Source: Ginglymostoma cirratum
Lineage: Eukaryota
DNA length: 64,000 nucleotides
Reading direction: 5' to 3'
NCBI GenBank assembly: GCA_024137785.1
Contig: JAHRHZ010000082.1
Coordinates: 13,013,873-13,077,872 of the forward strand
Position 1 is the stretch's first letter; each line of letters starts with the position of its first letter. Shown here piece by piece: positions 1 to 64,000 of this stretch. A program made the position numbers and the translations under genes. The notes beneath the pieces are model-generated. The model searched no databases and was not told the origin of the DNA. It was given only the letters and a program-made list of their open reading frames with translations.

Positions 1-106
1 TCGGGCCTAGACCCTTGATGAAGGGTCTAGGCCCGAAACGTCAAGCTTTCCTGCTCCTATGATGCTGCTTGGCCTGCTGTGTTCATCCAGCCCCATGCTT
101 GTTATC
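1..106 (+). mobile_element. Penelope-like pLTR fragment; centre of a palindromic (back-to-back) pLTR pair whose left arm runs off the window
   Basis: tcgggcctagaccct-tgatg-aagggtctaggcccga is an inverted repeat, followed by aacgtcaagctttcctgctcc...gttatc as in the pLTR at 24491-24650; hammerhead core reads UUGAUGA (C3 lost). Confidence 0.85.
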
Positions 107-429
107 CCACAACTTGTTATCTCAGTAGTTCATTTTAATTCTCTAGATCATTTAACCCAGACAAAGGAAACATCCTGATGTCACACCATTGAATACTTGG
201 ACACTGAAATGAAAAAAAAACAATCATTATATAAGTTAATGGGGTCATGCAGTGACAGGAACATGAGGATACATAAATAAAAAGGGATAAATACATTCTA
301 TAGCTGTGGTTCACCTGACCTAACTGTTCTCACACTATACCTGTCCTTATCTTGACCAAATGGTCTTTTTTCACGTTTCACTTTAGATGAAATGTGAAGT
401 AGTCTTGGATTTCTTCATCCTCAAGACTG

Positions 430-1110
430 AGTCCACCTTTGTAACTTTCTCTTGTTTCTTGCCCTTCTACCATGCCAACTTTGTCCCAGCCATCTCCTTC
501 AAGTCGCAGTCCAAATCCAACCTCTCCTAAGGTCATTAATTGAATATGTTGTTGGTTCCCAGATTTATGGTAATTCCTCACAGTATTCTCTTTGAAATCC
601 TCCTATCCAGACTTCCAACCTCCTCAACACAGTCAGTAAAGTAACAAGTGGGCTTTCTCAAGATTGTGATGTCTCTCACTTTTACTCTGTCTCCACTTGA
701 TCATTCTTCCTCTCCATTATGCAGCTTCATCCAACTGTTCTTGCAGAGTTCTATTCCTTTCTAATCAAATGCTGTACATTTTCCAGTAATGGCTTTTCTT
801 CCCTCTGACCATTACCTCAGTCATTTTCATCTCGAATAAAGCATTAAGTTTTGGGCACTGAACATCAGGGGAGAAAAAAATCAGCCTTTGAGGTGGTACA
901 ACAGATTCACTTGAATAAATCATGAATGCCTCCAGATCAAGTAGGGAAGTCTGAAACCATTGCTTTTGAGCTCCATCACAAACTCTCTCCCCGCAGCCAC
1001 AGTCTAGACATCCTGTTTGATTCCAATTAAGGTTTAAGCCTCATATTCTGTCACCAAGAATGTTTATCTCCATCTTTGCAACATTACCAATTATTCAAGT
1101 TGGGATCAGC
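430..1110 (+). mobile_element. highly decayed L2/CR1-group LINE RT remnant
   Basis: Degenerate traces of PISNL..SK..E.VV..Q and FE..QSGF.P.HS motifs around 510-635; many stops and indels. Confidence 0.45.
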
Positions 1111-3060
1111 CCATTGAACTGGCAAGAAATAGATCACAGCCAGCAGATCATATAGATGGGGTGACAGACGGATAGTTGGGGATTGATACATTGGGTGGTT
1201 TGTGGGAAGATCATGGCAAATATAATGAACAGGATATTGTGGAGGTCAGGTAAATGCATTTGATAAATGGTTTCAGTAACTTGGAAGGCTTTTATGGCGC
1301 AGTGACTATGTCTCTATCTCTGCACAGAAGGCCTGAGTTCAAGTCCCACCTTCAGACGTGTGTCACGATGTGTTTAAACAGGTTGATTAGAGTACCCTAG
1401 AAACTATCTTGAAAATTTAAATCTGTATATTATGTTTTGAGTCTTACAAAAATGAGTAATTTTGTGATCAGTAAACTTAATCTAAATGACCTGGAAAATT
1501 ATTTCTTTTCTGTCCTTTTCAACTTTACACCATAGGTCTTGGATCTCTAATTAGGCCTTTCCATTTTTCATAACTCTGTCAGAAAATTGAGTCAGATTCT
1601 TTCTCAGTGTAAGTCTACTCAAACTCAACTGATTGTAAATTTTCTTCTCAATTTTATGCTGGTACTTTATTCAGCATATCCATATATTTCTATGAGAACA
1701 TTTACTACTGAGTTCTGCTCTTTAAGATGAGGATTTATTTCTCTAGACAACATGAGTGCATTAAATCAAGTACTGTGTGGCATTACCATTCAAGCTTAAA
1801 TGTGATAGGATGTGGCACTGCTAAGAGGGAAGCCGAGTAACCAAAACCTGCTCAAGTGACACTCTTTTTATTGTACTTAATGTATGTAAAGAACAGGAAG
1901 CACTATACACAGTTAAATTCTTCAGTTTGCTTGAGGTTAAGTTTATGTGGCATTTCAACTTTATAATATAATCACTGCAGAGCAGCGTGAGGGAAAGTGA
2001 GTCCTGGAGCAGCACAACTTACCTTGGTGCAGCTAATTCCAGTGTGGAGCGGGACAGTTGTTGGATTGGGGCCTGGCTCAGTCAGTCAGACCACATGCTG
2101 CTATTTGAAATTTTTTACTGGATTGTCATGTCAATCCTTTAACTGTGTTATACCTATCTTATTTCTAACTTTTTTTTAGACACTGTAAATAATGCTAATA
2201 CTTTTCCTTTTATTCCTCTTTGTATCCAATGATACTATTAAAGGCAGCAATTGTAAAACCTTTTCACTGTACTCCTGTACGTCAGTATTGGAGTACATGT
2301 GACAATAAAGGATATTCTGTTTCTGATTCTGAATCATTTGGTTTACACTACAAAGTTGTAGTTACGAGTATGGGCATCAATTATAATTGAGCAATTAAAA
2401 GTTCCACATCAACTTCCCCATGTCTTGTAAAGTCATTCACTCAGGCCTACTGGGAAGGTGTAGAGAGGGATGAGAAGAAAGCAAGCAGGAGAAACAATTG
2501 CACAAAATCTGGGAATATGGATAGGTCAAGGGGAATAATTGGTTAGACTTACAATTTGCATAAATTGACATGACCATATTTGATATAGAGTGTGTGTGCA
2601 CACTGAGAGAAGGAGATTGAGTTACAGATCCTTTTGTAGCTACTGCCCTACTTCCCCTTCATCTGGGAAGACTGGCAATATCTGTGCTATAGATTTTATT
2701 ATGACTATTGTGGCAAGCAGCAAAATGGTACTCAAGGAATCGGTACAGGAAACGGCCATTCAATCCCTCAAACCAGCTTCACCATCTTGATCATGGTTGG
2801 TCATCTACTTCAATGCCATATTCCCTTTCTACCCTCATGTTGCTTGATTTTGATAGATCCTTGGGAGAGTCAGCCAATTTCTGCAGTTTTCATTTTAACC
2901 ACTGGATACCTGTCCAGTAAACAACTGATCGACTAAGGTGAATTCATCCTTCTAGTACCTATTAATCAGCACTTTTGAATTAATAGCCCTTTTGGGATTC
3001 AGATCAACAATGGAAAGAAAATGCAAGTTTACACAAATGGTCCAAATCTGCTCCCAAATA

Positions 3061-3510
3061 TTATTTCTTTTGCCTTAATTTTATTTCCATTTTAATAAAA
3101 GCTTTAAGGTTCTCATCATCAACATATTTATCAATATCCTCGAGGGCTTTTTGATCTCCATTCTGGTAGTACTGTGTCATTTCCTCTGCATATGAAATCC
3201 ATACACAGTTATGGCATCCTTTCATACAGCACCAGGTAGGGGGGATTGGTGGAAAGTTGTCACTTCCCTGACTGCGACCATCATCCTTATTACTTTGTTC
3301 TTTATTTTGAAGATGAAGTTGGTTGTTTTCTTTGTTCTCTTTGCAGTTCAGGTTCCTGGAGAAAGCAAAAAACCTTTTGTACAAGGTTATAGTCTGGTTA
3401 TAGTGTAACATCTGCAAAACTGTGAACAGTCCAGGCAAATGCGATGAAACCGGAAAGCCTGATGTCCATATAAATCCATTGGAAGAGAATTGTGATAGTC
3501 CAGGAGCTCC
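3061..3510 (-). CDS. OXLD1: OXLD1 (oxidoreductase-like domain-containing protein 1), coding exon 2 (last)
   Basis: Acceptor ttttaatcttcAG at 3511-3512, phase 0; 150 codons GAPGLSQ...PPIPPTWCCMKGCHNCVWISYAEE...DENLKAFIKMEIKLRQKK*; P-P-x-x-CCxxGCxxCVW is the Oxidored-like domain signature. Confidence 0.93.
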   Translation of the reverse strand, partial: GAPGLSQFSSNGFIWTSGFPVSSHLPGLFTVLQMLHYNQTITLYKRFFAFSRNLNCKENKENNQLHLQNKEQSNKDDGRSQGSDNFPPIPPTWCCMKGCHNCVWISYAEEMTQYYQNGDQKALEDIDKYVDDENLKAFIKMEIKLRQKK

Positions 3511-4024
3511 CTGAAGATTAAAATGAAGAAAGCTTATTTCTTATACCAACGCCTATAATAACTCAATCATAAAATGATAGGGAATGGAAATGTCAGAATG
3601 TGAACAAAAATACTTTGCCAAATAAGTACAAAAAGTTTGTCCCCAAATGCATTGTGGCTGAACTATCCATGCTAGGACAAAGCCAAATGCAACCCCAAAT
3701 CCTGCAGATCAGCTTGTCTCCAATCCCTAGTGTTGACAGGCCTCAAACAGAAGATAATAGAATCACTGTGAACCGTCACAGTGCTCCTAGGCTAAGAGGA
3801 ACTGAAACAAATATTATTCAGGGTTCCTGTTCCTTATCACCATCTACAATGCCCTGTTAGAAAGCATGGGAATGAGTTTGGTTGAGGAGAGAATCAGACT
3901 GGGCTATGTTATCTTACCAGTCCAGAAACCAAATGACAGTGTCTGCGCTTGAATGTTTTATTTCAATTCACTATTAGAAGCTGCCAATTAAGGTTCTGGG
4001 GTTTGGGAGAAGGCCGACTTTAAT

Positions 4025-5079: not shown

Positions 5080-7753
5080 CTTTCCTGGATTGCCACCTTG
5101 CTGCGGTGGAGATGTTTGAATGGTTCATTGATCCCAAGAGTGATACTGTCTGGAATTCTCAATTGTTGGCAGAGCTGCCCGTGATGGTCAGTTAAGAGAG
5201 GAGGAATCAGACCAAACACAATCCAGAACAATTCTTCAATGGAGATCCAGGCGGAAAGTATTAGTGTGATTGAGAATCTTCAGTCTTCGAGGTTTGCTTG
5301 CCACTGCCTTCTGTCGAGGACTGTGAGTCTGCTGATGTGCAAATCGTTCCCACATTAAAAGATGTCCTGCACAAGACATGACGAATTGAAGAATGGAAAA
5401 GCCAAAGAGTAGACAGGATTCCAGCAGAGATTTTCAAACTTGGAGGAGCACAGCTTACCTGTCATCTCCATCAACAGTTCTTGAAAATCTGGGACAAAGA
5501 AGACATCTCACGGATGATGTCATGGTGAGCATCTTCAATAAAAAAGAGACAAAGTGCACTGTGGGAACTACTGAAGAATCTCCTTATTCTCCATTGCTGG
5601 GAAGATCGTTGCCTGAATCCTTGCCAGGTGCCTTTTCCAGTCTCTGAGGGAATCCTTCCTGAAAGCCAGTGTGGCTTCCAACCAAACCAAGGAACATGAT
5701 TTTCACTGCTTGTCAACTCCAAGGAATAGCATCAACCACTCTACATGGCCCTTATTGACATGGCCAAGGCTTTTCACTCAGGAAGTTCTATGCAAGACTC
5801 TGTCAAAGGCTGATTATCCAGTGAAATTCATCAACATCCTCCATCTCCTACTCAACAAGATGTCAACAATGGTCCTCACTGATGATAATATGAAAGAATA
5901 TTCTGAAGTCAACACAGGGGTCAAGCAGGGATATATCATCACCCCCACCCTTTTCTATACCTTCATCGGCACCATTCTTCATCTTGTCAAGAACAAGCTT
6001 CCCAGTGGTGTGGATATTGTCTACAGAATGGGTGGAAGACCTTTCAACCACAAACAACAACATTGACCTCACTTGTGGAACTTCTGCATGCAGATGACAA
6101 TGTCAAGTCTGCTCTCTCAGAAGAGAATCTCCAAGCCTCACTTAGAGATGGTAAGAACTGCTGATGCTAGAGTCAGAGATAACACAGTGTGGAGCTGGAG
6201 GAACACAGCAGGCCAGGCAGCATCAGAGGAGCAGGAAAGATGATGTTTCAGGTCGGGACCCTTCTTTAGAAAATGCTTAGCACCAGGCACATTGTGGGGG
6301 AAGTCCGGGGTAGGGTTGAGGACTTGGGGGTGGAAGAGGTCTGTGTTTTGTGGCAGGTACCAGTAAGTTTGACGTACTTACAGTTTCTAATGTCCGATAG
6401 GGTGGAGTAAAATCGTAGGTTGAGGTTGTGGATCCTGTGAAGAATAAAAAACAGAAGAGGTCCTTTGCAGGTCGAGGGCAAGGAGGCTGTGAGCTGGGGT
6501 AGGCTTGATTGAAGGGCCAGAAGATGCCGGCACATTGCTGAGAGCGTGTGCTTGAGGAGTCGCAGAGAAAAACGTTTTTGGAGGATGTGAATGTTCTGTA
6601 TGAAGCAGTCATCACGGTTGGGGCCAAATTGGGAAGGCCTGAATGTAGACTGGAGTCCATTGGGATAACCCAGTTTCGTAGGCAGGTACCGAGAACGGCA
6701 ATGTAGCTGTAGTACCTGGTTTGCTTCAGTATGTGGTCGAGCAGTTTCAGGGCAGAAGAGATTACCAGAGGGTTGCAGTAGGAGAGATATCCATTGAGAT
6801 CTTTCCGGAGGGAGGAGGATCACTTCTTCAAGGTAGACATCCCTAAAAGAGGCTTCGCTGTGGGGTTATAACTCACTCAGAAATAGCAAGAACTGCCGAT
6901 GCTGGAGCCAGAGATAACAGAGTGTGGAGCTGGAGGAACACAGCAGACCACGCAGCATCAGAGGAGCAGGAAAGCTGATGTTTCAGGTTGGGACACTTCT
7001 TCAGAAGTAGTGGTCAACTCCTACATTAAGATCAACAGAGAAATTCTGCCGAATGTGAACATTTCCCTTACGTGGGAAGCTACTTCTCATCGAAAGATGA
7101 CATCGATGCGGAAATTCAACTTCTCATTCAATCTGTAAGCACTGCCTTTGGACAGCTAAGCATTACAGTCTTCGAACATGACATCTGTGCCAATACCAAG
7201 ATCTTTGTGTATAAGGCAGTTATCTTTCCGACTCTCCTGTGTGGCTTCAAAGCTAGGACTATGTACGGATGCCACCTCAAAAAGTGCTATCATTGTTGTT
7301 TTAAATGGATTCTCCTCATCAGCTGTGAGGACAGGTTTGCTAACATCAGCTTCCTTAAAGCAGTCAATAACACCAGTATTGAAGCCATGATCATCCAAAA
7401 CCAAATCCATTGGGCTGGTTATGTTCTTAGGATGCCTGGTTTCTGACAACCAAAACGAATCTTCTTCGCCGAGCTGAAGGGAGACACTCGAACGAAAGGA
7501 GGACAAAGACTCTCTGAAGGCTTCCTTCAAGAAATGCAACACAGATATCAAAGCATGGAAGACCCTCGTTCAAAAGAAGCTGATTTGAAGGAAATTCCTG
7601 TACGAAGAGACATAAATCTTTGAGAACACCTGTCAGCAAAAGGAAGTATGGAAAAGGAACTGAAGAAAGAAGTCCACAGAACTGGTGACCGGTGACACGG
7701 AATTTCCCAGGTGGACAATCATATTCGATAGCAAGTGACTGCCAATGATGACA
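5080..7753 (+). mobile_element. RTE-clade LINE, both ends present, internally deleted
   Basis: 11-bp TSD agggataaacc at 5069-5079 and 7754-7764; RT motifs (QCGF, GVKQG.II.PTLF, YADD-like, YLGS, TKIFVYKAVI.PTLL.G, WAG.V.RM); short gat-repeat tail. Confidence 0.88.
6145..7007 (-). mobile_element. Penelope-like non-autonomous unit: pLTR - ORF N-terminus - pLTR (direct repeats)
   Basis: Two ~125-bp direct repeats (6145-6272, 6880-7007) with decayed hammerhead cores flank a frameshifted ORF start (SSLRKDLNGYLS...PNGLQSTFRPSQFGPN...). Confidence 0.75.
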
Positions 7754-14774: not shown

Positions 14775-16925
14775 CAGTTAACATCAAGTGTAACTTCTGA
14801 GTTGCAAGTTCTCAGGATTTCAAGAACATTACCGGATCATTGATTGGATATTGGATTATTGTTGGCTGAGCTGAGCTGCTATTGGTGGATCTTCGTGTGG
14901 CTTTGGCTTTACACCAATTCAGTGTCAAGCCAACTTGAGCTATGAACACTAAGTGCCTGTACTTCAGGTCAGGGTGTCTGGAACACTGTCAAGGTTCTGT
15001 GAAGAGGGTGAAGGAAGCTGTGCCAGTCAATCGGCCTTTTTTTGCAAAGAAGGTGCCCCCGCATTGCTGAAGGTTCCAAGTGGCAGGGCACTAGGGCGGG
15101 GACAGAGACAAAGAAAATTGCACACACCCCCAACTTGGAAATGCTGAAATTGCAAGGAGCCCAGTGAAAATCCACCTCCTAACTTGGAGAACCCACAAGG
15201 TACCCAGCACAGCACAGCACAGCCCATACGACGTGAATGGACAGTTTTGCTCGCCTCTCTCATGCCTTCTGAACACCTTTGAGTACGAAGAATCTCTTGA
15301 TGTTCCTCTTGACTCTCCCACTGGAGACTCAAAGAGGGGTTTTCATGGTTCCTTATCCTGCGTAAATCCCTTTTGAGCTCCCGAATGTATTCTGGGGTCA
15401 ACACTGGAGACACACCACATTTACACTGTGCATATTAATGCTGGCAATTTTGAAACCCAAATCAGATCATGTAAAGTGCTGGGAATTGGGTTCAGAGAGG
15501 TGTGTGCTAAAACGTGGGAGGAGTGTATTGCCAAGGCGAGGCAGAAACTGGGCAGATGGGAGATCCCCATTGCAGGTAAAAATCCGGTCATCAGGTGTGA
15601 GGCACTGTTGATAATGCTGTATGTGGCGCAGGTCCGGCCCATTCCCTGAGCGTGCGCCACTGCAGTCACCAAGCATCTTCCACCTCAAATGGAAGTCAAA
15701 GATGGATTGCATCCGCAGGGAGAAAACATACAAAGCTCTGGATAATGTGGGGGAGAGTTAAGAGGAAGTATTGATCGTCACCCTCATCCTGATGGCCACC
15801 TTTCTGTGCAGCTGTGCACAGACCCTCAGTATGCAAACACCAAGTGTCACTTACGTATATTGACGTTCTACCTGTTCCCAGTGTTGCGAAGGATGGGTCT
15901 GGCCTAACTGCCACAGAACAATCCAAGTAGTTGGATTGTTCCATTTCAAAGATCCTTGAGGAAAAATGTGCAAAGGGAAACACCTTTGACCACAAGTCCA
16001 CGAGGCAGTGGTCAGCATACAACGTCCACAAGACATCGCAGAAAAAGGACCGGGTTGATCATGTCAGCAGATTGTCAAAGTCATTGGCAGAATGCCTCTT
16101 TGCCAGAACTTTCCAAAGCATCAAGACATAGGCTCGGCTGGTGGTGAGAAGAACACTACCTGTCAGATCCATCATGCATACCTGGACACCCTATGCCACC
16201 ACATGCTGCCCTTGAAATGGCTGCAGGGGAGGAAAGAGACTGCCACATATCTCTTTTTGGAAAGTGCTTTTGCAAAAAAATTCTAGAGGGAGATGCAATG
16301 GTTTTTGTCAAGGTTTGTCCCAAGCAGCTGATACAGGAGATGCATGAAAAATGCTTTCTGGTCTGTTCAAAACTTGTTGGTCGATCTAGGTAAAAAGTTG
16401 ACCACGACCAAGTGTTGCACTGATACACTGCAAGGTCTGCTAAAGCTTGGGACAGCTGCCACCAATGCATAGTGGGGAAACACTACCGTCTCAGGTCTTT
16501 CTACCAAAGTATAACAAGGGTCTATTAAGCTGTCAGACACTGTCACTGCTTCAAATGAACGTAAATAGTTTCCCGCATGAATAGAAAATACATTTGTTTT
16601 GCAACTGCAGGGAAAATCTGAGGAATCAATAATGTGGAGCTGGAGGAACACAGCTGGTCAAGCAACCTCAGAGGAGCAGGTTGTAAACCCAAAACATCCA
16701 TATTCCTGCTCCTCTGATTCTGCCTGACCTGCTGTGTTCCTCCAGCTCCACACTGTATTGACTCTGATTCCAGCATCTGCAGTTCTTGTCATGTCTGAAT
16801 GTCCAAGGAATGTCAAATTCTAATTTGTCGTTTGGCTTTTTTTCCTCTGCAAAGACTGTTTCAGGACCTTTGTATGTAATTATAGTTTCTTTTCACGAAT
16901 AAAGTATATTTTTGCAAAAAAAAAT
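14775..16925 (+). mobile_element. Tx1/L1-clade LINE, rearranged (5' end + inverted ORF2 pieces + 3' ORF2 + polyA)
   Basis: ORF1-like GQGV.NTVKV.VK..PV.R.FF.KKV (~14965-15085,+); ORF2 pieces on - strand (FKIASIN, LTPE.I.ELKR..., 15250-15460); RT C-term KTWEE.IAKARQKLGRW...GKN.VIRCEAL (+); aataaa and polyA 16899-16924; possible TSD ccta 14771-14774/16926-16929 within a CR1 tail. Confidence 0.78.
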
Positions 16926-17583: not shown

Positions 17584-17828
17584 GTGAGCGAGGGAGCCCT
17601 AGTTCACGGGAGAGAGAAAGACAGAGACACGCGTTGTCCATCCTCAGGGAGTCTGACGCCGGGAGTACGCAGTCCCGCTGGTGCCCTGATTAGTATTTAC
17701 TCCTCAGTCAAACGCTTAATACTTTGCTGAGCACAGCATTTAAAAAAGATAATTCGATGAGCACTTGAAGTGTGATAACATTCAAGGTTTTTGGGCCAGT
17801 GGTGGAAAGCGGGAATTAGTGTAGATTT

Positions 17829-18790
17829 CGAGATAACACAATGTGGAGCTGGATGAATACAGCAGGCCAGGCAGCATCAGAGGAGCAGGAAAGCTTGACG
17901 TTTCGGGCCTAGACCCTTCATCCAGCTCCACACCTTGTTATCTCGGATTCTCCAGCATCTACAGTACCTATTTTATCTATAAGCTGATGTTTCGGGTCAG
18001 GACTCTTCTTCAGAAATGGGGAGGGGGAAGGGAGCTTAAATAAATACAGAGGAGGGATGGGGCTGGGGAAGTTAGGTGGGTTGGTGATAGGTGAGTGCAG
18101 GTAGGGAATGGTGGGGATTGGTCAATGAGGGGTGGATAGGTGGGAAAGAGGATGGACAAGTTGTATCAGGTCAAGGAGGTGGGAATGAGGGGAAGGGTTG
18201 GTCATGGAATGAGACCGGAGTTGGGGAAGATTTTAAGACTAGTGAATTCCACGTTTAGGCCATTGGGCTGTATTTTCCTGAAGCGGAACATGAGGTGCTG
18301 CTGCTCCAGTTTCCGGATGTGTCATTGTGACACAGGAGGAGGCCCAGAATGGACATGTCACCCAGGAAGTGGGAGGAGGAGTTAAAATAGTTTGTGACCA
18401 GAAGGTGTTGTCGTTTGTCGCGTACTGAGCGCACATGCTCTACAAAACGGTCTCCGAGTCTCTGCATGGTCTCACCGATGTAGAGAAGGCCACATCGGGA
18501 GCAGCGGATGCAGTAGTTAACGGTTGTGCAGGTGAACCCTTGTCTAATGTGGATGGTTTGTTTTGTGCCTTGAATGGAAGTGAGAGGGTGGTGTAGAGGC
18601 AGGTGTCGCACTTCCTGCGGTTGCAGGGAAAGGTGCCAGGGGTGGTAGGGTTAGTAGGGAGTGTGGAGCGGACGAGGGAGTTGCGGAGAGAGTGGTCCCT
18701 GTGAAAGGCAGATGGGGCGGGGAGGGAAATATATCTTTGGTTGCGGGGTCGGATTGTAGGTGGCGGAAGTGGCAGAGAATGATACGTTGG
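17829..18790 (-). mobile_element. Penelope-like GIY-YIG endonuclease fragment plus pLTR, with a small hairpin pLTR element at 17829-17978
   Basis: ORF 18255-18611: YCIRCSRCGLLYIGETMQRLGDRFVEH...; pLTR sequences at the left end. Confidence 0.88.
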
Positions 18791-20058
18791 AGGTGGCAGA
18801 AGTGTTATCTCCTCATGTAGATTTTGTGTATTTTCGTCGGTACAGATTTGATGGGCCTTTTCCATATTGTATGATTCTGTGCTTGTTGGGATCTTGTTAT
18901 TTCCAAATGGCTTCTCACGTTTGTCTACATTACAGCAATGAGTCCACCACGTTTGACTGCAAAATATTTTAGAATGTCCTGAATTCACAGATATGATTAC
19001 AAGGCTTAAACAAAACTTTGTAACGTTCTCTACTGGGATTTCAGGCTAGTTAACTCTACAGAATGTACCCTGGTGCCTTAACCCACTCGGCTATTAGTCA
19101 GGGAGTTAGGGGAGTTCTTATGGTTTAATTTATTAAGGTTTGGAATTTGAATTCAATAAATATCTGGAATTAACAATTTAGTGATGACCGTAAATCCGTT
19201 GTTGATTGTCGGAAAAACCCATCTGGTTCAGTAATGTCCTTTAGGGAAGGAAACTGCCATCCTTACCTGGTCTGGCCTACATGTGACTCCAGACCCACAG
19301 CAACGTGGTTGACTCTGAACTGCCTGCTGGACAGTTAGGGATGGGCAATAAATGCTGCCTCACAGTGACACCCTCATCCTTTGAATGAATAAAGAAAAAA
19401 TGTCCTGTAATCAATCAGTTCTGAGCGCCATGAAGTTTGATCCCTCAAATCGAGTAATTTTTATTCACATTGCGGGAGGTCACAGATTCAAGTTGTTGAC
19501 AGAATTTGGAGGACAGAGGGAGTGACGAGAGAGAAACATACTGGCAATTCTGAATGACTTTGACTTTGTTTTTAACTCTGCCCACCACTACGTTTAGGAA
19601 TAAGAGTAGACCATTGAGCCTGCACTGCTATTTAATGTAATCGTGACTGATGAAACACTTTTAAATTCTACAGATTCACAACCCTCTCAGTGAAAACTAT
19701 TCTGATTAACATGGTCCAATGTAACATCCTGCTTATTTTTAAATTGTGCCTTCTGGTTCTAAACTCTCTAACCAAGGGAAGCATCTGCATCTACTCCTTC
19801 TATTCCTTGAGTTTTTTTGTAGGTTTCAATGAGATCACCTCTCGTTCTTCAAAATTCTTGAAAATAGAGGCCCCTTTTCATAGCACAGTACTGCCTTCAT
19901 GATGACAAATCTGGTGAACTTTGTTACAGTCTGTCTATGGCAAAGATATCCTTCCTCAAAACTGCATGCTATACTTCAGGTATAGTCTAATGAAGCTCCT
20001 TTACAGTTGAAGCAGGATGTCTAGACTCCTGCAATAAAGGCTAACATTCCAGGAGTCT

Positions 20059-20187
20059 GTTCTGATGAAGGGTCACCGGACCCGAAACGTTAATTCTGTT
20101 TTCATAGATGCTGCCAGACCTGCTGAGCTTTTCCAGCAACTTTGTTTTTGTTCCTGATTTACAGCATCTGCAGTTCTTTTGGTTTTT
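20059..20187 (+). mobile_element. 129-bp hammerhead-headed mini-element (second PLE pLTR family)
   Basis: 13-bp TSD attccaggagtct at 20046-20058 and 20188-20200; begins 3 nt before CTGATGA. Confidence 0.85.
20062..20091 (+). ncRNA. minimal type I hammerhead ribozyme motif
   Basis: CUGAUGA-A-GGGUC(ACCG)GACCC-GAAA-CGUU: full core, 5-bp stem II, palindromic loop-less stem III. Confidence 0.72.
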
Positions 20188-24221: not shown

Positions 24222-24589
24222 GTATGTGATGAGCAAGAAATCTGGTAGCACGGTATCTCTGTGTTCAGTATTCTGGCAGGTTACTGCTTATGAGAACTAT
24301 TCCATTAATGCTGTCTACCAAATGCATGATGTGACTAAAAAGAAAAGTGTCTTCACTCCCAAGAAGAGTAAGCGTGGGACAGATACTGCAGAAAGTTAAG
24401 ATCATGGTTTGTTGGGAAATCCTTAGGGAGTTAACGTAGTTCTTACAGTGAGTGTCACTGAGAAGAGTGGACAAGATGAAGACTCTGTCAGAGATAAAAG
24501 GTACTGCAGATGCTGGAGAATCCGAGATAACAAGCATGGGGCTGGATGAACACAGCAGGTCAGGCAGCATCATAAGAGCAGGAAAACTT

Positions 24590-24617
24590 GACGTTTCGGG
24601 CCTAAACCCTTCATCAG
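24590..24617 (-). ncRNA. minimal type I hammerhead ribozyme motif in the 3' pLTR
   Basis: Reverse complement CUGAUGA-A-GGGU(UUAG)GCCC-GAAA-CGUC. Confidence 0.75.
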
Positions 24618-36364: not shown

Positions 36365-36374
36365 NNNNNNNNNN
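36365..36374. other. assembly gap
   Basis: 10 N bases. Confidence 0.99.
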
Positions 36375-41630: not shown

Positions 41631-43530
41631 AAATTCAGCAAAATCTGTGAAGAGAAACAGAATCACTTTTTTGCATTCGAAACTTATAGAACACTTTTCC
41701 ATTTCATCTCTCCGTAGATGCTGCCAGACCTGCTGAGTTTCTCCAGCATTTTCTGTTTTGATTTCAGATCTCCAGCACCCACAGTAGTTTGTTTTTACTG
41801 AAAACTGTTATTTCCACAACTCAGGTGTGTGGAACCCAGGCTTTCTATCTCTTTCTCTCTCTCATACCCCAGTGTTTTGCAAGAAATATTTGTGGATAAT
41901 TCTTGATTTATCATGGCTGAGGTCTCAAAATTGTAAAGAATTCCTAGCTCAGGAAAGCAGACCTCAGATAAATGTGAAAAGTGGAATGTTGTGCACCTTA
42001 TCACTAATAACACTGTTCTTAATGTTCTGACATTTTTAGCAAGCATCATCATGACTAATAGCATATCGAAAGCTCAGCAATTAATTTGCTAAGATAAACA
42101 TATCAGTTTGAAAGTGCTTTAAATGAGCTGTTTCATTGGCATCTGAGAGAATTGAACACACAAGGAGATTGGAATGAGTAATGGCCAATTAGCTTGTGAA
42201 CTCCCTCAGTAAACCCATTGGGTGCAGTGCTTGTATCCCTTCAACCTGGACCTACAAATTGGAGTTTTTTTTTTGAAGCTGTATGAATCACAAGTTTCAT
42301 TAATGCATTCAAAGATCTCTTATACCTCTCCTTTGCTATAACCAGCCAGCAATGAATGTTAAGAGAAGCAATAGAACAGTTAACTAAGAACAGGGTCACA
42401 TCCAGATTCAATATTTCAAAAGTGTGAGCCCCAGGTAGTGATGCTGAAATACGGTGGAAACTTTCAGCAAACAGACCCCAATGTTCATCATAATATATTT
42501 AATGGAGACGTTAATCATAGAAGGAGATTGGACGTTACGTAAACTTAATAAATGTTCGCAAACTGCTTAAACAGGATAATTACACTGGGCCAAATCTTCC
42601 CAGCCACTGAACAAAGCGGGCATTGATGAGTCAGTTCAGAAAACAGGATGAGATCGACAGAAATGAGATTCTTGATGTTGACAGGAAAAGGTCTGATTTT
42701 CCAACCAACCTCTGAATCTCACTAGTGTGGCGAAATGCCTATTTGAATTTATTTGCATACATAAGCACGTTACTACTACCTTATCCTGCCTCATTGATGC
42801 AGTGATATGCAGATCCCCATTCTTTCACCCGCCAATTTGATTTTATTTGGTTTGATTTATTACTGTCACTTGTACAGTGAAAAGTATTGTCTTATGTGCT
42901 TTACAGGCAGACCGTACCATGCAAGTGCAACAGGGTAACTAGAAACTAGACAGTGACAATTCCCAAAATGGAGGTTGGGGGGAGTGGGTACTGCAGCTCA
43001 CTGCGTGCTTTTCTGGGCTTCCATCTTGGACGACAGCTCCCGAAATCACAGGGCTCCCTCCAATGGCAGTGACCACCATTCCCCCAGTGGAATCTGACAT
43101 TAGACATGTACCGATCTTACCACACCATCATAGCACATCCCCAAACCACCTACAATACCATTCTGCAGTTCAATGGCTGGACCACACTGGCACCTCTCCT
43201 TGGAATGCTGCTGTAAGGGACATGGATTGGGCCAGACTGCATCGCAGCCTGTTCACCTGCTATCTTGGTTCTCACTCACTTTGCACTTATGTAAATACAT
43301 TCAGCATTTCTGCTGTGAGATGTCCTGGGGTTGTGAAAAGTGTTCGATAAATGCAAGAGTTTATTTCTTTGTCACAGTGTAGCAAATGCTGGGATGAGTG
43401 ATTTCTTTTTCCAATAAGGTTTCTTTGCTCCAATTTTCTTCCCTTCTCTCCTGAAGACTATGATACCAAGGCTTGTCACACTCTGTGCAAGCCCCAATTC
43501 AGCACCTAAGCAGATCACCTAAATTGTTAT

Positions 43531-43620
43531 CCTTAGTCTAGGCCCGAAACATCAAGCTTTCCTGCTCCTATGATGCTGCTTGGCCTGCTGTGTTCATCCA
43601 GCTCCACACCTTGTTATCTC
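43531..43620 (+). mobile_element. solo PLE pLTR fragment truncated inside the hammerhead
   Basis: TSD acctaaattgttat 43517-43530/43621-43634. Confidence 0.82.
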
Positions 43621-43635
43621 ACCTAAATTGTTATT

Positions 43636-50074: not shown

Positions 50075-50605
50075 CAGACAAGTGGTTAGGCAGAAGATAC
50101 AAAAGTTTGAGAACACATACCAGTAGATTCAAGAGCAGGTTCTTCCCCACTGTAACAGACTTTTGAATGGACCTCTCACATATTAAAGTTAATCTTTCTC
50201 TGTACCTTTCTGTAGCTGTAACACTATAATCTGCGATAACAAGGTGTAGAGCTGGATCAACACAGCAGGCCAAGCAGCATCAGAGGAGCAGGAAGGCTGA
50301 CATTTCGGGCCTAGACCCTTCTTCAGAAGGGTCTTCTTCAGGTTTTCTGAAGAAGAGTCTAGGCCCGACATGTCAGCCTTCCTGCTCCTCTGATGCTGCT
50401 TGGCCTGCTGTGTTCATCCAGCTCCGCACCTTGTTATCTCAGATTCTCCAGCATCTGCAGTTCCTACTATCTCTGAAACACTATAATCTGCATTTTGTTC
50501 TATTACCCTGATGCACTTATGTAAGGTAAGATTTGCTTAGGTAGCACGTAAAGCAATACTTTTCACCGTATCTTAGTACGTGACAATAATAAATCAAATC
50601 AAATT
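50075..50605 (+). mobile_element. Rex1/Babar 3' fragment interrupted by a palindromic pLTR element
   Basis: GRRYKSL.T.TSRFKS.FFPTV.RLLNG; aatca-repeat tail. Confidence 0.75.
50235..50476. mobile_element. palindromic double-pLTR mini-element with a hammerhead remnant on each strand
   Basis: 15-bp TSD aacactataatctgc 50220-50234/50477-50491; ~90-bp inverted arms. Confidence 0.85.
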
Positions 50606-53040: not shown

Positions 53041-53559
53041 TATACCTGTCATCACACTGGCACTGAACCACAGATATCACATCACAGGGGATCTTCGATT
53101 TATGAACATCTAATTTATGAACAATTGTACCTATGAGCAAAGGATGTAATTTTAAAGATCCAACACATCAACTTGTCCTGTACTTATGAACGGCTCGTGC
53201 ATTTGTTCTGCCCTGCATGCTGACTGCAGTACCGAACCCATTGACAACACAGGGACTGCCTATACTGGTTGTGGGGTGGGGGCAGTATGTCTTTTTGGCT
53301 CAAGAGCAGAATCCAGTTAGTAAGGAAAAACAACTTATGGCTTAACTACATAGTAGCGGTGGGAGACAGCTAGTCATTCAAATAGTTGAGACATCTTCCA
53401 CTTCCGGGGTAATCTTTGGTAGAAACAAAAACAGAAATTGCTGGAGAAACTCAGCAGGTCTGGCAGTATCTTAGAGAGAAAACAGAGTTAATGTTTGGGA
53501 TCCAGTGACCCTTCTTTGGAACAATCTGTGTTAGACTGTGTATCGGTCAGGGCCACAAG

Positions 53560-54345: not shown

Positions 54346-55013
54346 AGAAGTGAGTCCAAGAAAAGACAAGAGTTAAAAGACATATAGATCGGACATAGAG
54401 ATAAAAAAAACTGCAGTTGCTGCAGTCCAAGGGAGACAGACAGGAGGCGAGAAAAACACAGCAAGCCAGGCAGGATCTGGAGCAGGAGAAGTCATCGTTT
54501 AAGGTATTACCCTTCTTCAGGACTGGATGTAGGGGCAGGCGGAGCTGCAGTTAGAGCCCTACCTACCCCCACACCCAGTCCTGAAGAAAGATAATACTCT
54601 AAACGTTGACTTCTCCAAAATAGATCAGACTCTCTGGGTTGACTGTGAGTAATAGATTGTGGAACGTTGATATTGATCAATGATATTGAAATTTTTACCT
54701 TGGCAGTTGATGAAATCCTTTTGTCTTCTTTCGTTTTTGTGGTGTTTGGGTGGCAACTCTCTGAGTGAGCATGCTTCTGTTGCCCCGTTTTCCTTTAACT
54801 GCCCTGTTAGCCAACTGACTTGCAGTGTGCAGAGTGAAAGAATCTTTTTACCCGCAATGCAGGGGTATTAGTGGGTGTTTCTTTGACTGCGATCTTCAAA
54901 GCATACTAGCATTTGAACCCAGGCTAGTATACACAGTTCACTAGCATGCCTGCTTTCACTAACACGCCTTTCACAACAAATATGGACCAAGGATATAATC
55001 AGTTTTTGGTAAT

Positions 55014-56200
55014 AGATAACACAATGTGGAACTGGAGGAACACAGCAGCATCAGAGCAGCATGAAAGCTCACATTTCAGGTCAGGACCGTTTTTCAGAAA
55101 TGGGGGAGGGGGAAGGGAGCTCTGAAATAAATAGTGGGAGGAAGGGTGGGGCTGGGGACAGTGGTGGGACAGTGATTGGTGAGTGCAGGTAGGCAGTGAT
55201 GGGGATTGGTCAGTGAGGTGTGAGGAGCAGGTAGGTGAGAGAGAAGACGGACAGGGCAAGAAGGCAGGGATGAGAGGGAGGGTTGGTCTTGGGATGGGGC
55301 TGGGGATGGGGGTATTTTGAAACTAGTAAAGTCCACATTGAGACCATTGGGCTGTAGGCTCCCGAGGCGGAATATGAAGTACTGCTCCTCCAGTTTACGA
55401 GTGGTGTCATTGTGACACTGGAGGAGGCCCAGGATGGACATGTCACCCAGGGAGTGGGAAGGGGGCGTTGAAATGGTTCGCAACTGGAAGATGTTGATAT
55501 TTGTCGCGAACAGAGCGCAGGTGGTCTACAAAGCGGTCTCCGAGCCTCCACTTGGTCTCACCGATGTAGAGGAGGCCACATCGGGAGCAGCGGATACAAT
55601 AGACCACATTAGCAGATGTGCACGTGAACATCTGCCTGATGTGGAAGGTTTATTTGGTGCCTTGGATGGAGGTGATGGGGGAGGTGTAGGGGCATGTGTA
55701 GCACTTCCTGCGGTTGCAGGGAAAAGCGCCAGGAGTGGTGAGGCTAGTAAGGAGTATGAAGCGGACAAGGGACTCGCGGAGAAAGCAGTCCCTATGGAAG
55801 GCAGACAGGGGTGGAGAGGGAAATATAACCTTGGTTGTGGGGTCAGATTGCAGGTGACAGAAGTGGCGGAGAATGATATGTTGAATCCAAAGGTTAGTGA
55901 GATGATACGTGAGGACAAGGGGGATTCTGTCATTGTTTTTGTTGTGGAGAGGAGATGTGAGGAGATAGAAATGAGTGGTGCAGGCTGGCGAACAATGACG
56001 TTGCAGGCTGTGGGCGGGAGGTCACCTGAGATGATAAGGTTATGAATGGTCTGAGAGATGATGTTTTGGTGGTCAGGGCTGGGGTCGTGATCAAGGGGGC
56101 AGTAGGAGGAGGTGTCAGAGAGCTGGCGCCTGCCCTCAGCCATGTAAAGGTCAATGCGCCATACCACAACAATTGTACAAAGCCTTGGTCAGGCCCCATC
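55014..56200 (-). mobile_element. older Penelope-like copy with internal deletion (pre-RT segment joined to EN and pLTR)
   Basis: WRIDLY.AE..RQLSDTSSY.PLDHDP then NVVYCIRCSRCGLLYIGETK. Confidence 0.88.
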
Positions 56201-57501
56201 AAAATATTACATTCAGTTTTAGACTCTATGCGTCAGGAATTATACGTAGATACAGGGGTAAGAGCAACTGAGATTAACCAAAAAGATTCTAGAGTTAAAG
56301 AATGGGGAGGCGCTTACATAATCTCGAATTGTATATCCTTGAAGAGGTGTGATTTAATTGAGGTGCTTAAGATCACTCAATAGAGCACATAGAAATTATT
56401 TCCTCTGGAAAAGGGGAAATCAAAACAAGAGGCCACAATTATTCTCGCTTCTTTTCGTTCCGAATTCTCCCCATGTTTGCACAATGTGTGGGTCTGTTGT
56501 GGTAATAGCTGCACTGCCTGGTGTAACAAAGCAGAAACTATGCACTTGGGATCACTCAGCAGTACACAAGGGGCCTTGCCACAGACAATATAACAGCTGC
56601 TGTGCTTGCAGAGCTGTGTAAATTGCACTACCATTGTTTAATGGAGCTCTCAGGGACTGATCCGAACACTTAGCAACAATACTTCATCTGAAAGGCAGAG
56701 CTAAAGGTAACAAAGACATTGAAACTATGTGGCAAACATTTGTGTGTTATCTTGATTGAAAGCCCGTCAGAGCTGCGGAAAAATTCTCCATGATTTACCA
56801 TTAACAACTTGCAGTATCTGATCAGGAAAATGTCTGGTATTCCATCCCACACCTTTGCTGTAATGTGTTGTTGCAAAGAATAAAGCTAATTATTTTTAGC
56901 ACTGAATGAGTAATAGTCTCTTTCAATGTATCATATTGGGATCCAACAACATCAATCATTGAACTACAATTGAAACTGTAAAGGCAGCTCAATTTGTTGA
57001 TAAAGTCATCTTCCAGTGTAGCACTAGACTATTTACACCAGCAGTTTTGTTATTCCAAGTTCAGTCTGCATTCAGATAAGAGGTTTTTTCATAGCAACCG
57101 TAAGTTGTTATAATGGTCCAGATCGGGGGAGGTTGGAATAACCAGCCAAAAGTTTCTGTTGTTAGTTGTAAGCCATATACAGTGACAATTCATGTCTGGA
57201 TCTTGAGTTTGTAGTTTCGGGCTGCAATGACTGCACTCCCACATCATCTGCTGACTGAGTTCCTGCTTTAAGATTGGCTGACGACTGACATTAAGCCAGC
57301 CTGTGCCTGTGGAACCTTCCTACAGGAGGAAGTGCAGAGCAATGTCTGCTTGGCTCATTTTCATGTGGTTTTCAATATACTGGCAATCTTTTCCCTCTAT
57401 ACTATAGACAGCACAAGTAGATCAGCTGTTAGAAGCAGTGGAGCTTATTTTCCACTGGGGGGGAGGTGACCTTAATTGAACTGTGTGGGATTCCAGGCTT
57501 A

Positions 57502-57659
57502 GAGATAAAAGGTACTGCAGATGCTGGAGAATCCGAGATAACAAGCATGGGGCTGGATGAACACAGCAGGTCAAGCAGCATCATAGGAGCAGGAAAACTT
57601 GACGTTTCGGGCCTAAACCCTTCATCAGAAATGGGGGAGGGGAAGAGGGTTCTGAAATA
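57502..57659 (-). mobile_element. young solo pLTR with intact hammerhead core (57601-57628)
   Basis: Nearly identical to 24491-24648; reverse complement CUGAUGA-A-GGGU(UUAG)GCCC-GAAACGUC. Confidence 0.88.
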
Positions 57660-61520: not shown

Positions 61521-61917
61521 TACTTGATTTTGTTCACAGTTTGATTAAATATCTTCTTCCCCTTGCCCCGACTGTCAGGACCTTTTTGATACTTCATTGC
61601 TTTTCATTTTCAGCAACCAGACCTAGAACTTATAGATAAATACTTTGCAGCCAATCTAATTTCTTATTCTTCTGTGAACTTGGGTCAACATCAGCAGACT
61701 AAGCTCAGTAAATGTGCTAAAGTTGGTAGCTGTGTCTTCAGTTGTCTGGACCCTGAACTTTGGAATTCTATTCTTCAACTCTTTGCACCTCTACCTCTCT
61801 CTCCTCATTTAAGTTGTTCCTTAAAATCTGTGTGTTTTCCTAATATATTTTCATGTGGCTCAAGTCATGACTGATAATGCTCCTGACTCCTTACTACAAT
61901 AAAGATGCTACACATAA

Positions 61918-63038
61918 GAACAAAAAGAACATAAGAATGAAAGAGAAGTATGGCACAGGAACAGGCCCTTCGACCCTCCAAGCCTGTACCGATCATCATA
62001 CCCTGACTAAACTAAAAAACAAACCTTCTGCCCTTATTCAGTTCCTCTCCCTCTGTTCCCTCCCTATTCATGTAACCATCCAGATGCTTTTTAAATGTCA
62101 CCAACGTGCCTGCTTCCAGCATCTCCTCTGGCAGTGAGTTCCGGGCTCCTACCACTCTCCGTGTGAAAAGTCTCCCTCGCACATCTCTCTTAAATGCCCT
62201 CTCTACTTGAACCTGTGACCCCTTGTATTTAAAACTTCAACCCTGGGAAAAAGCCTCTGACTATCGACTCTATCTATGCCTCTCATTATTTTGTAAACCT
62301 CTATCAGGTCTCCTCTCAGCTGCCATCTTTCCAGTGAAAACAATCCTAGTCTTTTTAACCTTTTCTCATGGCCAATGCCCTTGAGACCGGGCAACATCCT
62401 GGTGAACCTTCTCTGCACTCTGTCCAAAACTTTCACATTCTTCTGATAATGTGGTGACCAAAACTGCACAGAATATTCCAAATGCAGCCTAACAAGGGTT
62501 TTATATAGCTGCAACCTGGTTTGCCAACTCTTGTTGTCCATGCCTTGGCCAATGAAGGCAAGCATGCCATATGCCTTCTTAATCACATTGGTCACCTGTG
62601 TTGCCACTTTTAGGAAACTGTGGACCTGCACACTCAGATCCATCTGTATGCTAAAGTTCCTAAGGGTTCTGCTATTTACAGTATAATTCACGCCTAATTT
62701 CGATCCTCCAAAATGCATCACTTCACATTAAACTCCATCTGCCATTTCTGTGCCCAGGTCGCCAATCTAGCTATATCCTGTTGTATCCTTTCACAATCGT
62801 CAGCACTATTAGCAACTCCACCAATCTTTGTGTCATCTACAAACTTACGAATCAGACCACCCACATTTTCCTCCAGATCATTTATATATACTACAAACAA
62901 CAGAGGACCGAAGACTGATCCCTGTGGAACCCCGCTAGTTACCGATCTCCATTCTGAAAAACACCCTTCCATCGCTACCCTCTGTCTTCTATGACCAAGC
63001 CAGTTTTGTATTTATCTAGCCAGCACATCCCAAATCCC
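61918..63038 (-). mobile_element. CR1-type LINE, RT to 3' end
   Basis: VTSGVPQGSV.GPLLFVVYINDLEE...KF.DDTKIG; LVR.HLEYSVQFWSPHY; GDLIEVYKIMRGIDRVD. Confidence 0.92.
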
Positions 63039-64000
63039 AGATAACAAGGTGTGGAGCTGGATGAACACAGCAGGCCAAGCAGCATCAGGGGAGCAGGAAA
63101 GCTTGACGTTTCGGGCCTAGACTCTTCATCAGAAATGGGGGAGGGGAAGAGGGTTCTGAAATAAATAGGGAGAGAGGGGGAGGTGGATAGAAGATGGATA
63201 GAGGAGAGGATAGGTGGAGAGGAGGCAGACAAGTCGAAGAGGCGGGGATGGAGCCAGTAAGGTGAGTGCAAGTGGGGGGTAGGGAGGAGATAGGTCAGTC
63301 CAGGGAGGACGGACAGGTCAAGGGGGCGGGATGAGGTTAGTAGATAGGAGATGGGGGTGGGGCTTGCGGTGGGAGGAGGGGATAGGTGAGAGGAAGGACC
63401 AGTTAGGGAGGCGGAGATGAGCTGGGCTGGTTTTGGGATGCGGTTGGGGGAGGGGAGATTTTGAAGCTTGTGAAATCCACATTGATACCATTGGGCTGTA
63501 GGGTACCCAGGCTGAATATGATTTGCTGTTCCTGCAGCCTTCGGGTGGCATCACTGTGGCATTGCAGGAGGCCCAGGATGGACATGTCGTCTGAGGAACG
63601 GGAGGGGGAGTTGAAATGGTTCGCGACTGGGAGGTGCAGTTGTTTGTTGCGAACTGAGCGCAGGTGTTCTGCAAAGCGGTCCCCAAGCCTCCGCTTGGTT
63701 TCCCCAATGTAGAGGAGGCCACAACGGGTACAGCGGATGCAGTATACCACATTGGCAGATGTGCAGGTGAACATCTGCCTGATGTGGAAAGTCTTCTTGG
63801 GACCTGGGATTGGGGTGAGGGAGGAGGTGTGGGGGCAGGTTTAGCACTTCCTGCGGTTGCAGGGAAAAGTGCCGGGTGTGGTGGAGGGGAGTGTGGAGCG
63901 GACAAGGGAATCGCGGAGGGAGTGGTCCCTCCGGAAAGCAGATAAGGGTGGGGAGGGAAAAATGTCTTTGGTGGTGGGGTCGGATTGCAGATGGCGGAAG
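63039..64000 (-). mobile_element. young Penelope-like element 3' part (EN + pLTR), continues beyond the window; hammerhead motif 63105-63132
   Basis: ORF 63403-63774 almost identical to the EN in 24873-25817; stem II has one A-C mismatch (GAGU/GCCC). Confidence 0.92.

Follow-up and report, generated by a model that had tools for sequence, protein, structure and literature searches.

Short hammerhead-bearing copies of Penelope-like elements in a shark genome are probably first products of reverse transcription

A 64,000-nucleotide stretch of the Ginglymostoma cirratum genome (contig JAHRHZ010000082.1, positions 13,013,873 to 13,077,872; here called the window) carries hammerhead ribozyme motifs scattered along its length, raising the question of whether the short copies that bear them are elements in their own right or by-products of longer ones. 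The motifs are minimal type I hammerheads, with CUGANGA and GAAA-N-N-UH and palindromic 15.1-16.1, in the terminal repeats (pLTRs) of Penelope-like elements (PLEs), whose hammerheads have been known since 2014 (PMC4209133). The original prediction had put the full motif, CUGA(U/A)GA-A-stem II-GAAACGU(C/U), at 12 or more places, all in PLE terminal repeats. Each of these places does hold a copy of the repeat; the full motif is present at 5 places (20062+, 26158+, 24617-, 57628- and 63132-), and 4 rather than 5 are intact because stem II of 63132 has an A-C mismatch. Elsewhere the CUGAUGA strand is partly or wholly missing (16-42, 17922-17897 and 43536), the core is changed (copies at 6269, 33080, 39499 and 50347) or the palindrome has decayed at CpG (7004, 18013 and 50326, with stem II also broken in the first two). 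The stem II variants quoted earlier occur in the window exactly as written, and the high density claimed, about one motif per 5 kb, was borne out by 23 recognisable hammerhead or tail copies, one per 2.8 kb (Table 1). The host ORF in the window is OXLD1-like, and its 4 named matches are all from sharks, the best at 87% to Chiloscyllium plagiosum.

Table 1. PLE copies and other features along the window
Feature	Position	Strand	Details
Family A stub	16..106	+	starts at core +1; right arm of head-to-head pair, cut by window start
Host OXLD1-like ORF	3061..3540	-	named matches in sharks
Chimera 6143-7008, first module	6273..7008	-	starts 4 nt before core; decayed hammerhead, tail, ORF N-terminus to ~+735
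Chimera 6143-7008, second module	6143..6272	-	restarts ~3-5 nt before core; extra T, decayed hammerhead, tail
Family A stubs, head-to-head pair	16610..16798		both cores lost
Older family A copy	17813..19100	-	GIY-YIG remnant, pLTR, hammerhead ending at +32
Inverted tail piece of older copy 17813..19100	17917-17979	+	
Second stub of older copy 17813..19100	17922-17813	-	
Family B stub	20056..20186	+	intact minimal hammerhead 20058-20095, fixed-point start, tail, 13-bp target duplication
Young family A copy	24486..26034	-	RT C-terminal part, C-x4-C-x2-C linker, frameshifted GIY-YIG, pLTR, tail
Intact hammerhead of young copy 24486..26034	24621-24586	-	
Inverted 218-bp pLTR arm	26035..26252	+	intact hammerhead, core 26158; no tail
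Family A stub, start -6	32977..33086	-	G12 changed; 10-bp target duplication
Family B-type copy	39396..39592	+	stem II GAGUC/GACUC, decayed core
Family B fragment without hammerhead	41707..41786	+	
Family A stub, starts inside stem II	43536..43627	+	target duplication ~16 bp
Head-to-head pair	50213..50478		arm starts -2 and -3; + arm with tail; target duplication ~16 bp
Family B stub, start -3	53418..53522	-	decayed core
Family C head-to-head pair	54398..54616		stem I AGUC/GACU type, decayed
Older family A copy	55001..56300	-	RT/EN remnants, decayed hammerhead
Young family A stub, start -31	57500..57659	-	intact hammerhead (core 57628), tail
Family A copy, runs off window	63009..64000	-	GIY-YIG, pLTR, hammerhead with stem II mismatch

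The abundance seen in the window extends to the genome (4.36 Gb), which was sampled with 160 random 10-kb stretches containing 913,799 readable bases, 43% of the sample being N. Profile matching gave 278 hits in this sample and 0 in the reversed sequence; copies occur every 3.3 kb on average and belong to three or more families. A descriptor of the core plus a stem II of at least 4 bp gave 69 real matches versus 1 reversed; adding a stem I of at least 3 bp left 39 versus 0, and adding ACGU left 22 versus 0. The recurrence of the motif is not due to chance. Among the 11 weak hits of an Rfam scan (E up to 5), there was no hammerhead match. Extrapolated genome-wide, descriptor-level motifs number ~186,000 (95% range 132,000-254,000), or 106,000 if masked DNA has none, and stubs, as we call the short copies, ~1.3 million, or 0.76 million on the same condition. 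In a polyA RNA run, 47,753 of 12.9 million reads (0.37%) matched; this run looks unstranded, 86% of its matching reads run past the element into different sequence, and neither read starts nor read ends were listed as piling up at the element. A second run gave 26 reads only. By copy number and share of polyA reads, stubs are a large passenger load in shark transcripts.

The complete unit, represented by two loci (L026 and L035), is 3.5 kb long and consists of hammerhead, tail, RT, C-x4-C-x2-C linker, GIY-YIG, pLTR and hammerhead. Its GIY-YIG domain (PF01541) scores above the cut-off, and RVT_1 just below it (E 1.5e-6). As in endonuclease-bearing (EN+) PLEs, a single ORF, with one frameshift in the copies examined, joins RT to a C-terminal GIY-YIG, and pLTRs, a partial tandem or inverted 5′ arm, an optional tail and target duplication are all present. 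The linker of family A conforms to the CX2-5CxxC pattern of Neptune, which is common to Nematis in the accessible part of PMC8557442. Families B and C lie downstream of RT/GIY-YIG pieces of their own, 38-62% identical to family A; each of at least three families was thus observed beside its own RT/endonuclease. Within each family, short and long copies group together by sequence, and no private upstream or downstream sequence was found in the short ones. Their 3′ ends fall in two zones, ~95-110 and 125-131 nt after core base C3. Since B and C have their own RT/EN and the stubs have no private upstream sequence, the short copies are best read as by-products of several autonomous families, contrary to the proposal of several non-autonomous ribozyme-headed derivatives. 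A recently active PLE had also been proposed. There was indeed a young burst, the best 150 endonuclease matches being 96-100% identical and 149 of them stop-free; no fully intact RT-EN frame was seen among these 150, where frames longer than ~850 aa are probably masked runs, or in 20 loci retrieved with a query that favoured frameshifted copies. Altogether, we consider it quite probable that the window holds insertions of several hammerhead-pLTR PLE families and that the short copies are dead-end first products of reverse transcription, not mini-elements.

The short copies start at a fixed point. Of 272 random-sample copies, 202 were used after 44 long and 26 masked ones had been set aside, and 66 of their 5′ ends fall at -6 to 0, just before the core (9.4 per nt), against 0.02-0.28 per nt upstream of -14 and 1.4-2.0 per nt from +8 to +32. 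A base-level check of family A placed 50 of 148 5′ ends at -7 to -2. In families A, B and C the A four bases before the core matches YYANWYY, and an A/T-rich box starts at -31 in A and about -29 in B and is weaker in C; we call these initiator-like and TATA-like after the Inr and TATA consensus. Nine of the 15 best-supported joints in the polyA run end within 5 nt of the initiator-like A. Where the base before this A is not templated, it is G in 15 of 19 cases (28% expected, p 6e-6); internal truncations have an untemplated G in 14 of 49 (Fisher p 2e-4). The random sample contributes just 3 of the 15 G cases, and family B has no excess of G (2 of 5 non-C cases). Extra Ts occur at the 5′ end of 15 of 48 short copies versus 0 of 41 long ones. 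A templated C at -5 is carried by 29 of 48 short copies, so that the element start may be heterogeneous, and RTs add untemplated G or T at junctions without any cap according to the accessible text of PMC13000458. From these junctions, the fixed start with its extra G is likely to be the capped front end of the element RNA.

The edge could instead be a splice acceptor, an endonuclease cut in pLTR DNA or the fold-back point of an antisense self-primed template. A pyrimidine tract and AG lie at the edge in B and C, and the Penelope intron of D. virilis ends at helix I (PMC4209133); the accessible parts of PMC11167929 and PMC3846280 report, respectively, that ATT in the element's own pLTR is preferred by the endonuclease of the anole element and that antisense self-priming was proposed for head-to-head repeats, an arrangement found here in 37 of 229 random insertion clusters. 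We nevertheless regard these explanations as unlikely: family A has no AG at the edge, B and C have no ATT, a common upstream exon is absent from the short copies, and none of them predicts the site-specific extra G, the solo stubs or direct chimeras with the same edge.

Such chimeras are frequent among young copies that bear the ORF start. Among the 30 best matches to this region, which are top matches to one young subfamily and not a random draw, 19 consist of a front running to a variable ORF position, followed by a second stub that begins again at the fixed point (-3 to -7). Of all 30 matches, 15 begin at -2 to -7 (4 masked). Joints lie at ORF positions 394-1751, and one target duplication brackets the entire chimera in 5 of 11 readable cases. 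In an older subfamily (20 loci), the start spread is broader and internal truncation commoner. The one chimera in the window, at 6143-7008, had also been considered as a 735-bp retrozyme family; this was rejected because, at other loci, RT follows on from the middle of the repeat. An internal CTGATGA near +760 was considered as a source of microhomology that might cause the jumps and was discarded: no more than 4-5 of the 19 breakpoints fit, and letters have been added at the joints there. Target duplications are 10-19 bp long; those of at least 10 bp flank 19 of 38 head-to-head pairs and 10 of 56 stubs (window copies included), with 0-1 in shuffled pairings, and a 15-bp duplication encloses the whole insertion 24486..26252, copy and inverted arm together. 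The fusion of stubs to pieces of the same element suggests that a short front piece is copied first and that the enzyme then jumps.

Alternatively, stubs might be retrozyme- or SINE-like elements in their own right, non-autonomous and ribozyme-headed, with the PLE protein copying them from loci of their own. They do have a fixed 5′ end, two fixed 3′ ends, target duplications of their own and heavy passenger transcription; chimera breakpoints recur (about 395, 458, 493 and 750-770), and the accessible part of 10.64898/2026.07.22.740005 reports that retrozymes, which are akin to pLTRs, occur in one chondrichthyan. We hold this to be very unlikely, since stubs cluster with long copies and lack private flanking sequence, B and C have their own RT/EN, junction letters differ even at shared breakpoints, no tandem stub arrays occur in the window, and the ORF-start stretch on which insertion by the anole protein depends (PMC11167929, accessible part) is missing from stubs. 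Sequence clustering gave the stubs neither a diagnostic sequence nor a lineage of their own.

As for the ribozyme, stem II keeps its pairing as predicted (92% paired); its covariation is weak, the stem being near-invariant with 3 two-sided cells in 82 copies. Stems I and II together are 81.6% paired versus 78.0% when shuffled and have 28 versus 14.6 two-sided cells, but 5 versus 4.1 pairs (171/500 shuffles), with relatedness inflating the values. Two-sided change lies mostly in stem I, where U-A has become C-G in 5 of 5 long family C copies, and older family A retains only 2 contiguous stem I pairs. The hammerhead is not the minimum-energy fold of any stub folded, and folding z-scores range from -1.1 to +1.2; the ribozyme is predicted to be inactive as a monomer. 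Cleavage of a precursor by the hammerhead, with the RNA circularised or cut at C17 and copies made from the cut or circular template, was proposed in PMC4209133 and would suit the seamless long copies and the core, palindrome and stem I pairing kept across three families, but it is highly improbable here, as starts show no excess at the site (6 within 1 nt in the random sample, at background density; 2 of 148 at +28 in family A versus 0.73 expected, not significant), a circle offers no reason for the stop at -4, no pile of read ends was listed and, in monomer folds, the core is paired to the ACGU strand. A minor cleavage route, accounting for a few percent of copies, may exist.

The main interest of these copies lies in the PLE replication cycle, the subject of in vitro work in 2024. 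On the route that we propose, RNA polymerase II would initiate at the A that lies four bases ahead of the core, giving a capped transcript whose first segment is the 5′ strand of stem I of the hammerhead. The protein would nick the target and begin cDNA synthesis at either of the two internal sites in the tail, and this cDNA would reach the cap after 100-135 nt and copy it as an extra base. If the cDNA starts ~100-130 nt from the RNA front, a further step is needed to bring it to the remainder of the element. The strong-stop-like cDNA might be integrated as a stub, be joined to a second one head-to-head, or jump onto element RNA, yielding chimeras at internal points and ordinary long copies and partial tandems near the RNA 3′ end. 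Most inserted templates would be uncut, any hammerhead role being played in dimers or with protein bound. Seamless long copies also exist, of which the jump model gives no account. In D. virilis, Penelope starts well upstream of the hammerhead, across an intron (PMC2377424, PMC4209133), and the start geometry is therefore not universal. We lean slightly towards a retrovirus-like two-step route for vertebrate Neptune-type elements, from an internal target-primed start to the capped 5′ end followed by a template jump, with the shark genome keeping every outcome about a million-fold. If true, it would explain pseudo-LTRs, provide a birth route for retrozyme-like dimers and rank this genome among the most hammerhead-dense on record. 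The fixed start, site-specific G and chimeras yield three exact predictions for the anole assay and CAGE data.

In LTR retroelements, minus-strand strong-stop synthesis is primed near the RNA 5′ end and gives a short cDNA that runs to the cap and jumps; the R2 RT also jumps between templates. Strong-stop synthesis and strand transfer are analogues of the shark PLE route, which is not a member of that class: unlike LTR retroelements, it would be target-primed rather than tRNA-primed, with jumps that use little or no homology and no integrase. Shark PLE hammerheads and the jump model had no description in the literature searched, and the searched supplements of the minimal-hammerhead survey contain no mention of sharks. 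Such hammerheads are reported in the fish elements Xena, Poseidon and Neptune. The shark motifs share with known minimal PLE hammerheads the type I core, the extra base after A9, G10.1-C11.1, a short helix I, a palindrome in place of helix III, several families per genome, and mostly single truncated copies with opposite-strand pairs. Helix II is 4-5 bp here versus 7-8 bp in Schistosoma, and the ~186,000 motifs compare with ~4,000 in coelacanth and 9,000 in Xenopus, obtained with different descriptors.

In the accessible part of PMC11167929, PAc, a Poseidon element of Anolis carolinensis, initiates reverse transcription internally at tail sites, and cleavage is dispensable in vitro. In the shark elements, too, the hammerhead lies close to the ORF start, reverse transcription would begin at either of two internal sites, which would account for the optional tail, and insertion would not require cleavage; unlike in PAc, the long ORF begins after the tail and has a Zn-finger-like linker. 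That part of the paper does not describe RNA start mapping, cap copying or jumps. With Neptune and Nematis (PMC8557442, PMC3846280, accessible parts) they share the C-terminal GIY-YIG, the CX2-5CxxC linker, 5′ truncation, partial tandems, the inverted 5′ arm and a one-sided 30-40-bp tail; a rotifer pLTR has a putative TATA plus Inr. Those accounts explain solo pLTRs by recombination or deletion and prefer a model of antisense self-priming, and front-to-ORF chimeras with a fixed restart do not appear in the same portions. Non-LTR retrozymes are also short non-coding hammerhead repeats related to pLTRs (PMC7229834; 10.64898/2026.07.22.740005, both in part), and the latter counts 126,247 canonical motifs in axolotl. 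They are tandem repeats expressed as circles (PMC7229834, accessible part), whereas the shark copies are dispersed monomers, inverted pairs or, in the window, a one-off chimera. The chimeras, with two direct hammerheads 400-1750 nt apart, are a possible route to retrozyme-like dimers. Thus, the link between ribozyme and PLE was already known; what is new is the fixed start with an extra G and the same-element fusions.

Among the short hammerhead-plus-tail copies (stubs) of these Penelope-like elements (PLEs), 5′ starts concentrate at a fixed edge just before the ribozyme core. Counting from core base C3, with the cleavage site at about +28, we placed the 5′ ends of 202 copies that were readable and not long: 22 fell upstream of -14, spread over 126 nt, 20 lay at -13 to -7 and 66 at -6 to 0, with 1.4 to 2 per nt thereafter. 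In families A, B and C, the edge fits the initiator-like consensus YYANWYY, whose A falls at -4, and about 30 nt above it lies an A/T box; a promoter at this position is putative. Splicing, an endonuclease or an antisense origin might also generate an edge, which we regard as unlikely. At base level in family A, with 12 possible indels set aside, 50 of 148 5′ ends lay at -7 to -2 and 2 at the cleavage site (0.73 expected), which argues against cleavage products or circles as templates of the main route, a reading that we hold very improbable.

Short family A copies that retain the edge A carried before it the templated C in 29 cases, G in 15, T in 2 and A in 2; the base was C in 41/41 long copies. 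At internal truncations, by comparison, G stood in 14 of 49. Extra Ts occurred in 15/48 short copies versus 0/41 long ones. We read the extra G as a copied RNA cap, following the behavior of reverse transcriptases (RTs). Family B had no G excess at the edge, and untemplated G or T can arise without a cap as well (PMC13000458). The 3′ ends cluster in two zones, at about +95 to +110 and +125 to +131, the second close to the model end; they correspond to the tail already described, which arises because the RT can start at two internal sites (PMC11167929). A helix GAUGCUG/CAGCAUC joins +45 to the tail (window 24484-24621 and other stubs); it is situated between the two zones where the RT is inferred to start and is seemingly common to A, B and C. 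The stubs, like the head-to-head pairs, carry target duplications of their own (10 to 19 bp) and are thus insertion events.

The window also contains a 735-bp direct repeat that begins at -4, crosses the ORF start, extends to about +735 and restarts at about -4. Copies of the young ORF start were ranked by match, and the top 30 were taken regardless of sequence upstream of +119. Half of them (15/30, two of these near masked DNA; 4 masked) started at -2 to -7. In 19/30, a second module restarted at -3 to -7, joined at ORF positions 394 to 1751 (17 junctions resolved), and five resolved junctions had an extra G immediately before the A. The ORF did not resume 3′ of the second stub, a single target duplication enclosed the whole chimera in 5 of 11 readable cases, and only 2 of the 30 best matches clearly continued beyond +1880. 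Twenty loci of an older subfamily displayed the same edge, less sharply. Such chimeras are not predicted by simple 3′-to-5′ copying with 5′ truncation but are predicted by a short first cDNA that jumps. Across loci L221 to L250, breakpoints repeat near +395, +458, +493 and +750-770, perhaps marking preferred RNA 3′ ends. Young copies at L229 and L250 begin at +26, two bases ahead of the would-be cleavage product start.

We consider it probable that these copies derive from a capped RNA primed internally. The RNA would begin with stem I, cDNA would be primed at the tail and run off at the cap, and the product would then integrate, pair by fold-back or jump. Of this scheme, the distributions of ends, extra bases, duplications and chimeras are observed, and the cap, promoter and jump are inferred. 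Seamless long copies might arise through transfer to the 3′ repeat, guided by homology, or from read-through RNAs. In a polyA RNA sequencing run (X21), depth was about 10-fold greater on hammerhead and tail than upstream, and 9 of the 15 top joints ended at the edge; at neither the edge nor the cleavage site was a pile-up of read starts or read ends listed. These reads are mostly from transcribed genomic copies and do not map the RNA start.

The original prediction took the short copies for non-autonomous derivatives. This was not supported: no private sequence common to stubs and head-to-head pairs was found, and the B and C terminal repeats (pLTRs) sit 3′ of their own RT/endonuclease (EN) pieces (L138, L207, L209, L217, L062), so that these repeats are the ends of separate autonomous families. 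Independent non-autonomous elements are accordingly a most unlikely source. The three families dominate, with 134 (A), 128 (B) and 10 (C) of 272 sampled copies. A fourth hammerhead family, absent from the window, occurs in L172 and twice in L100, once near 9672 on the + strand and once on the - strand. Its stem II has 7 bp and a loop of 4 nt, its stem I has 5 bp, the palindrome is again ACGU and the flanks are unrelated. About 20 nt past the cleavage site, B and C have a pyrimidine tract with YAG and then ATG, reminiscent of a 3′ splice site; family A does not.

The PLE copy at 24486-26252 of the window has the textbook layout (PMC8557442, PMC3846280), and its linker type points to placement with Neptune or Nematis (PMC8557442). 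Complete units of about 3.5 kb were found in L026 and L035. The young subfamily has 97-99% identity between contigs and 157,250 first-look endonuclease candidates; no uninterrupted RT-EN frame was seen among the copies examined. Two further features were noted at L026 3780-4100 and window 25620-25640: an Ala/Thr/Pro-rich low-complexity insert in the ORF N-terminus, and a poly-C run close to the RT end that is a recurring frameshift site.

Features of the window and the basis of their assignment
Feature	Position	Strand	Basis or detail
Intact minimal hammerhead (predicted)	20062	+	fold on paper
Intact minimal hammerhead (predicted)	24617	-	fold on paper
Intact minimal hammerhead (predicted)	26158	+	fold on paper
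Intact minimal hammerhead (predicted)	57628	-	fold on paper
PLE copy	24486-26252		sense part: RT end, C-x4-C-x2-C linker, GIY-YIG, pLTR, hammerhead, tail; inverted arm 218 bp; target duplication 15 bp
Splice-like tract (B and C)	20095-20110, 39530-39545, 41700-41716		
OXLD1-like host ORF	3061-3540	-	Pfam PF09791
LINE RT-end-like fragments	5617-6066, 7030-7446, 37790-38338, 62203-62727		
Dispersed repeat family 1	34795-34981, 44255-44441, 49207-49287		repeat search
Dispersed repeat family 2	10331-10477, 19212-19358, 58339-58485		repeat search

A profile search counted 23 repeat copies in the window. The motif had been noted at 12 or more places; motif scan, repeat search and profile searches found the repeat at every one, but the entire motif in only 5 copies and, on paper, an intact minimal hammerhead in 4. 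The remaining copies are truncated or decayed, frequently at CpG sites, and no Rfam hammerhead model matched the window at E up to 5. The OXLD1-like ORF matched four named shark proteins (best match, 87%), which places the host among sharks. The four LINE-like fragments look like RT ends of the RTE and CR1 types; the first alone had a weak RVT_1 match. Both dispersed repeat families are probably SINEs.

A random sample of 160 stretches of 10 kb from 56 large contigs (913,799 readable bases, 43% masked) gave 278 hammerhead/tail matches and 39 descriptor-level motifs versus none of either in reversed DNA. Scaled up to the 4.36-Gb genome, the copies would number about 1.3 million and the motifs 186,000; were masked DNA to contain none, the estimates would fall to 0.76 million copies and 106,000 motifs.

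In 82 distinct natural copies, selected because their core is intact, pairing held in 81.6% of stem cells versus 78.0% in shuffles, with slid controls far lower, and two-sided cells numbered 28 versus 14.6, both inflated by relatedness; the number of covarying pairs in this set was not above shuffles. Stem II is mainly invariant G-C, its fourth pair varying on one side; at 10.2, family B has the series G-C, G-U, A-U. In stem I, U-A is replaced by C-G in 5/5 long C copies, and older family A retains just two contiguous pairs.

Monomer folding predicts that the core pairs with the ACGU strand, in agreement with the low activity published for such motifs (PMC4209133) and with the finding that the anole ribozyme depends on protein (PMC11167929). 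Published counts, obtained with descriptors that differ from ours, are about 4,000 hammerheads in coelacanth and 9,000 in Xenopus (PMC4209133), and 126,247 canonical motifs in axolotl (PMC7229834). The literature searched, which left repeat-database entries and some PLE papers outside its scope, described neither hammerheads in shark PLEs nor the jump model. For fishes, hammerheads in PLE repeats have already been published (PMC4209133), Penelope is listed for whale shark (PMC8455134), and a 2026 preprint (10.64898/2026.07.22.740005) reports retrozymes in one chondrichthyan; the main weight of the finding lies in the footprint of the mechanism, not in the link between ribozyme and PLE.
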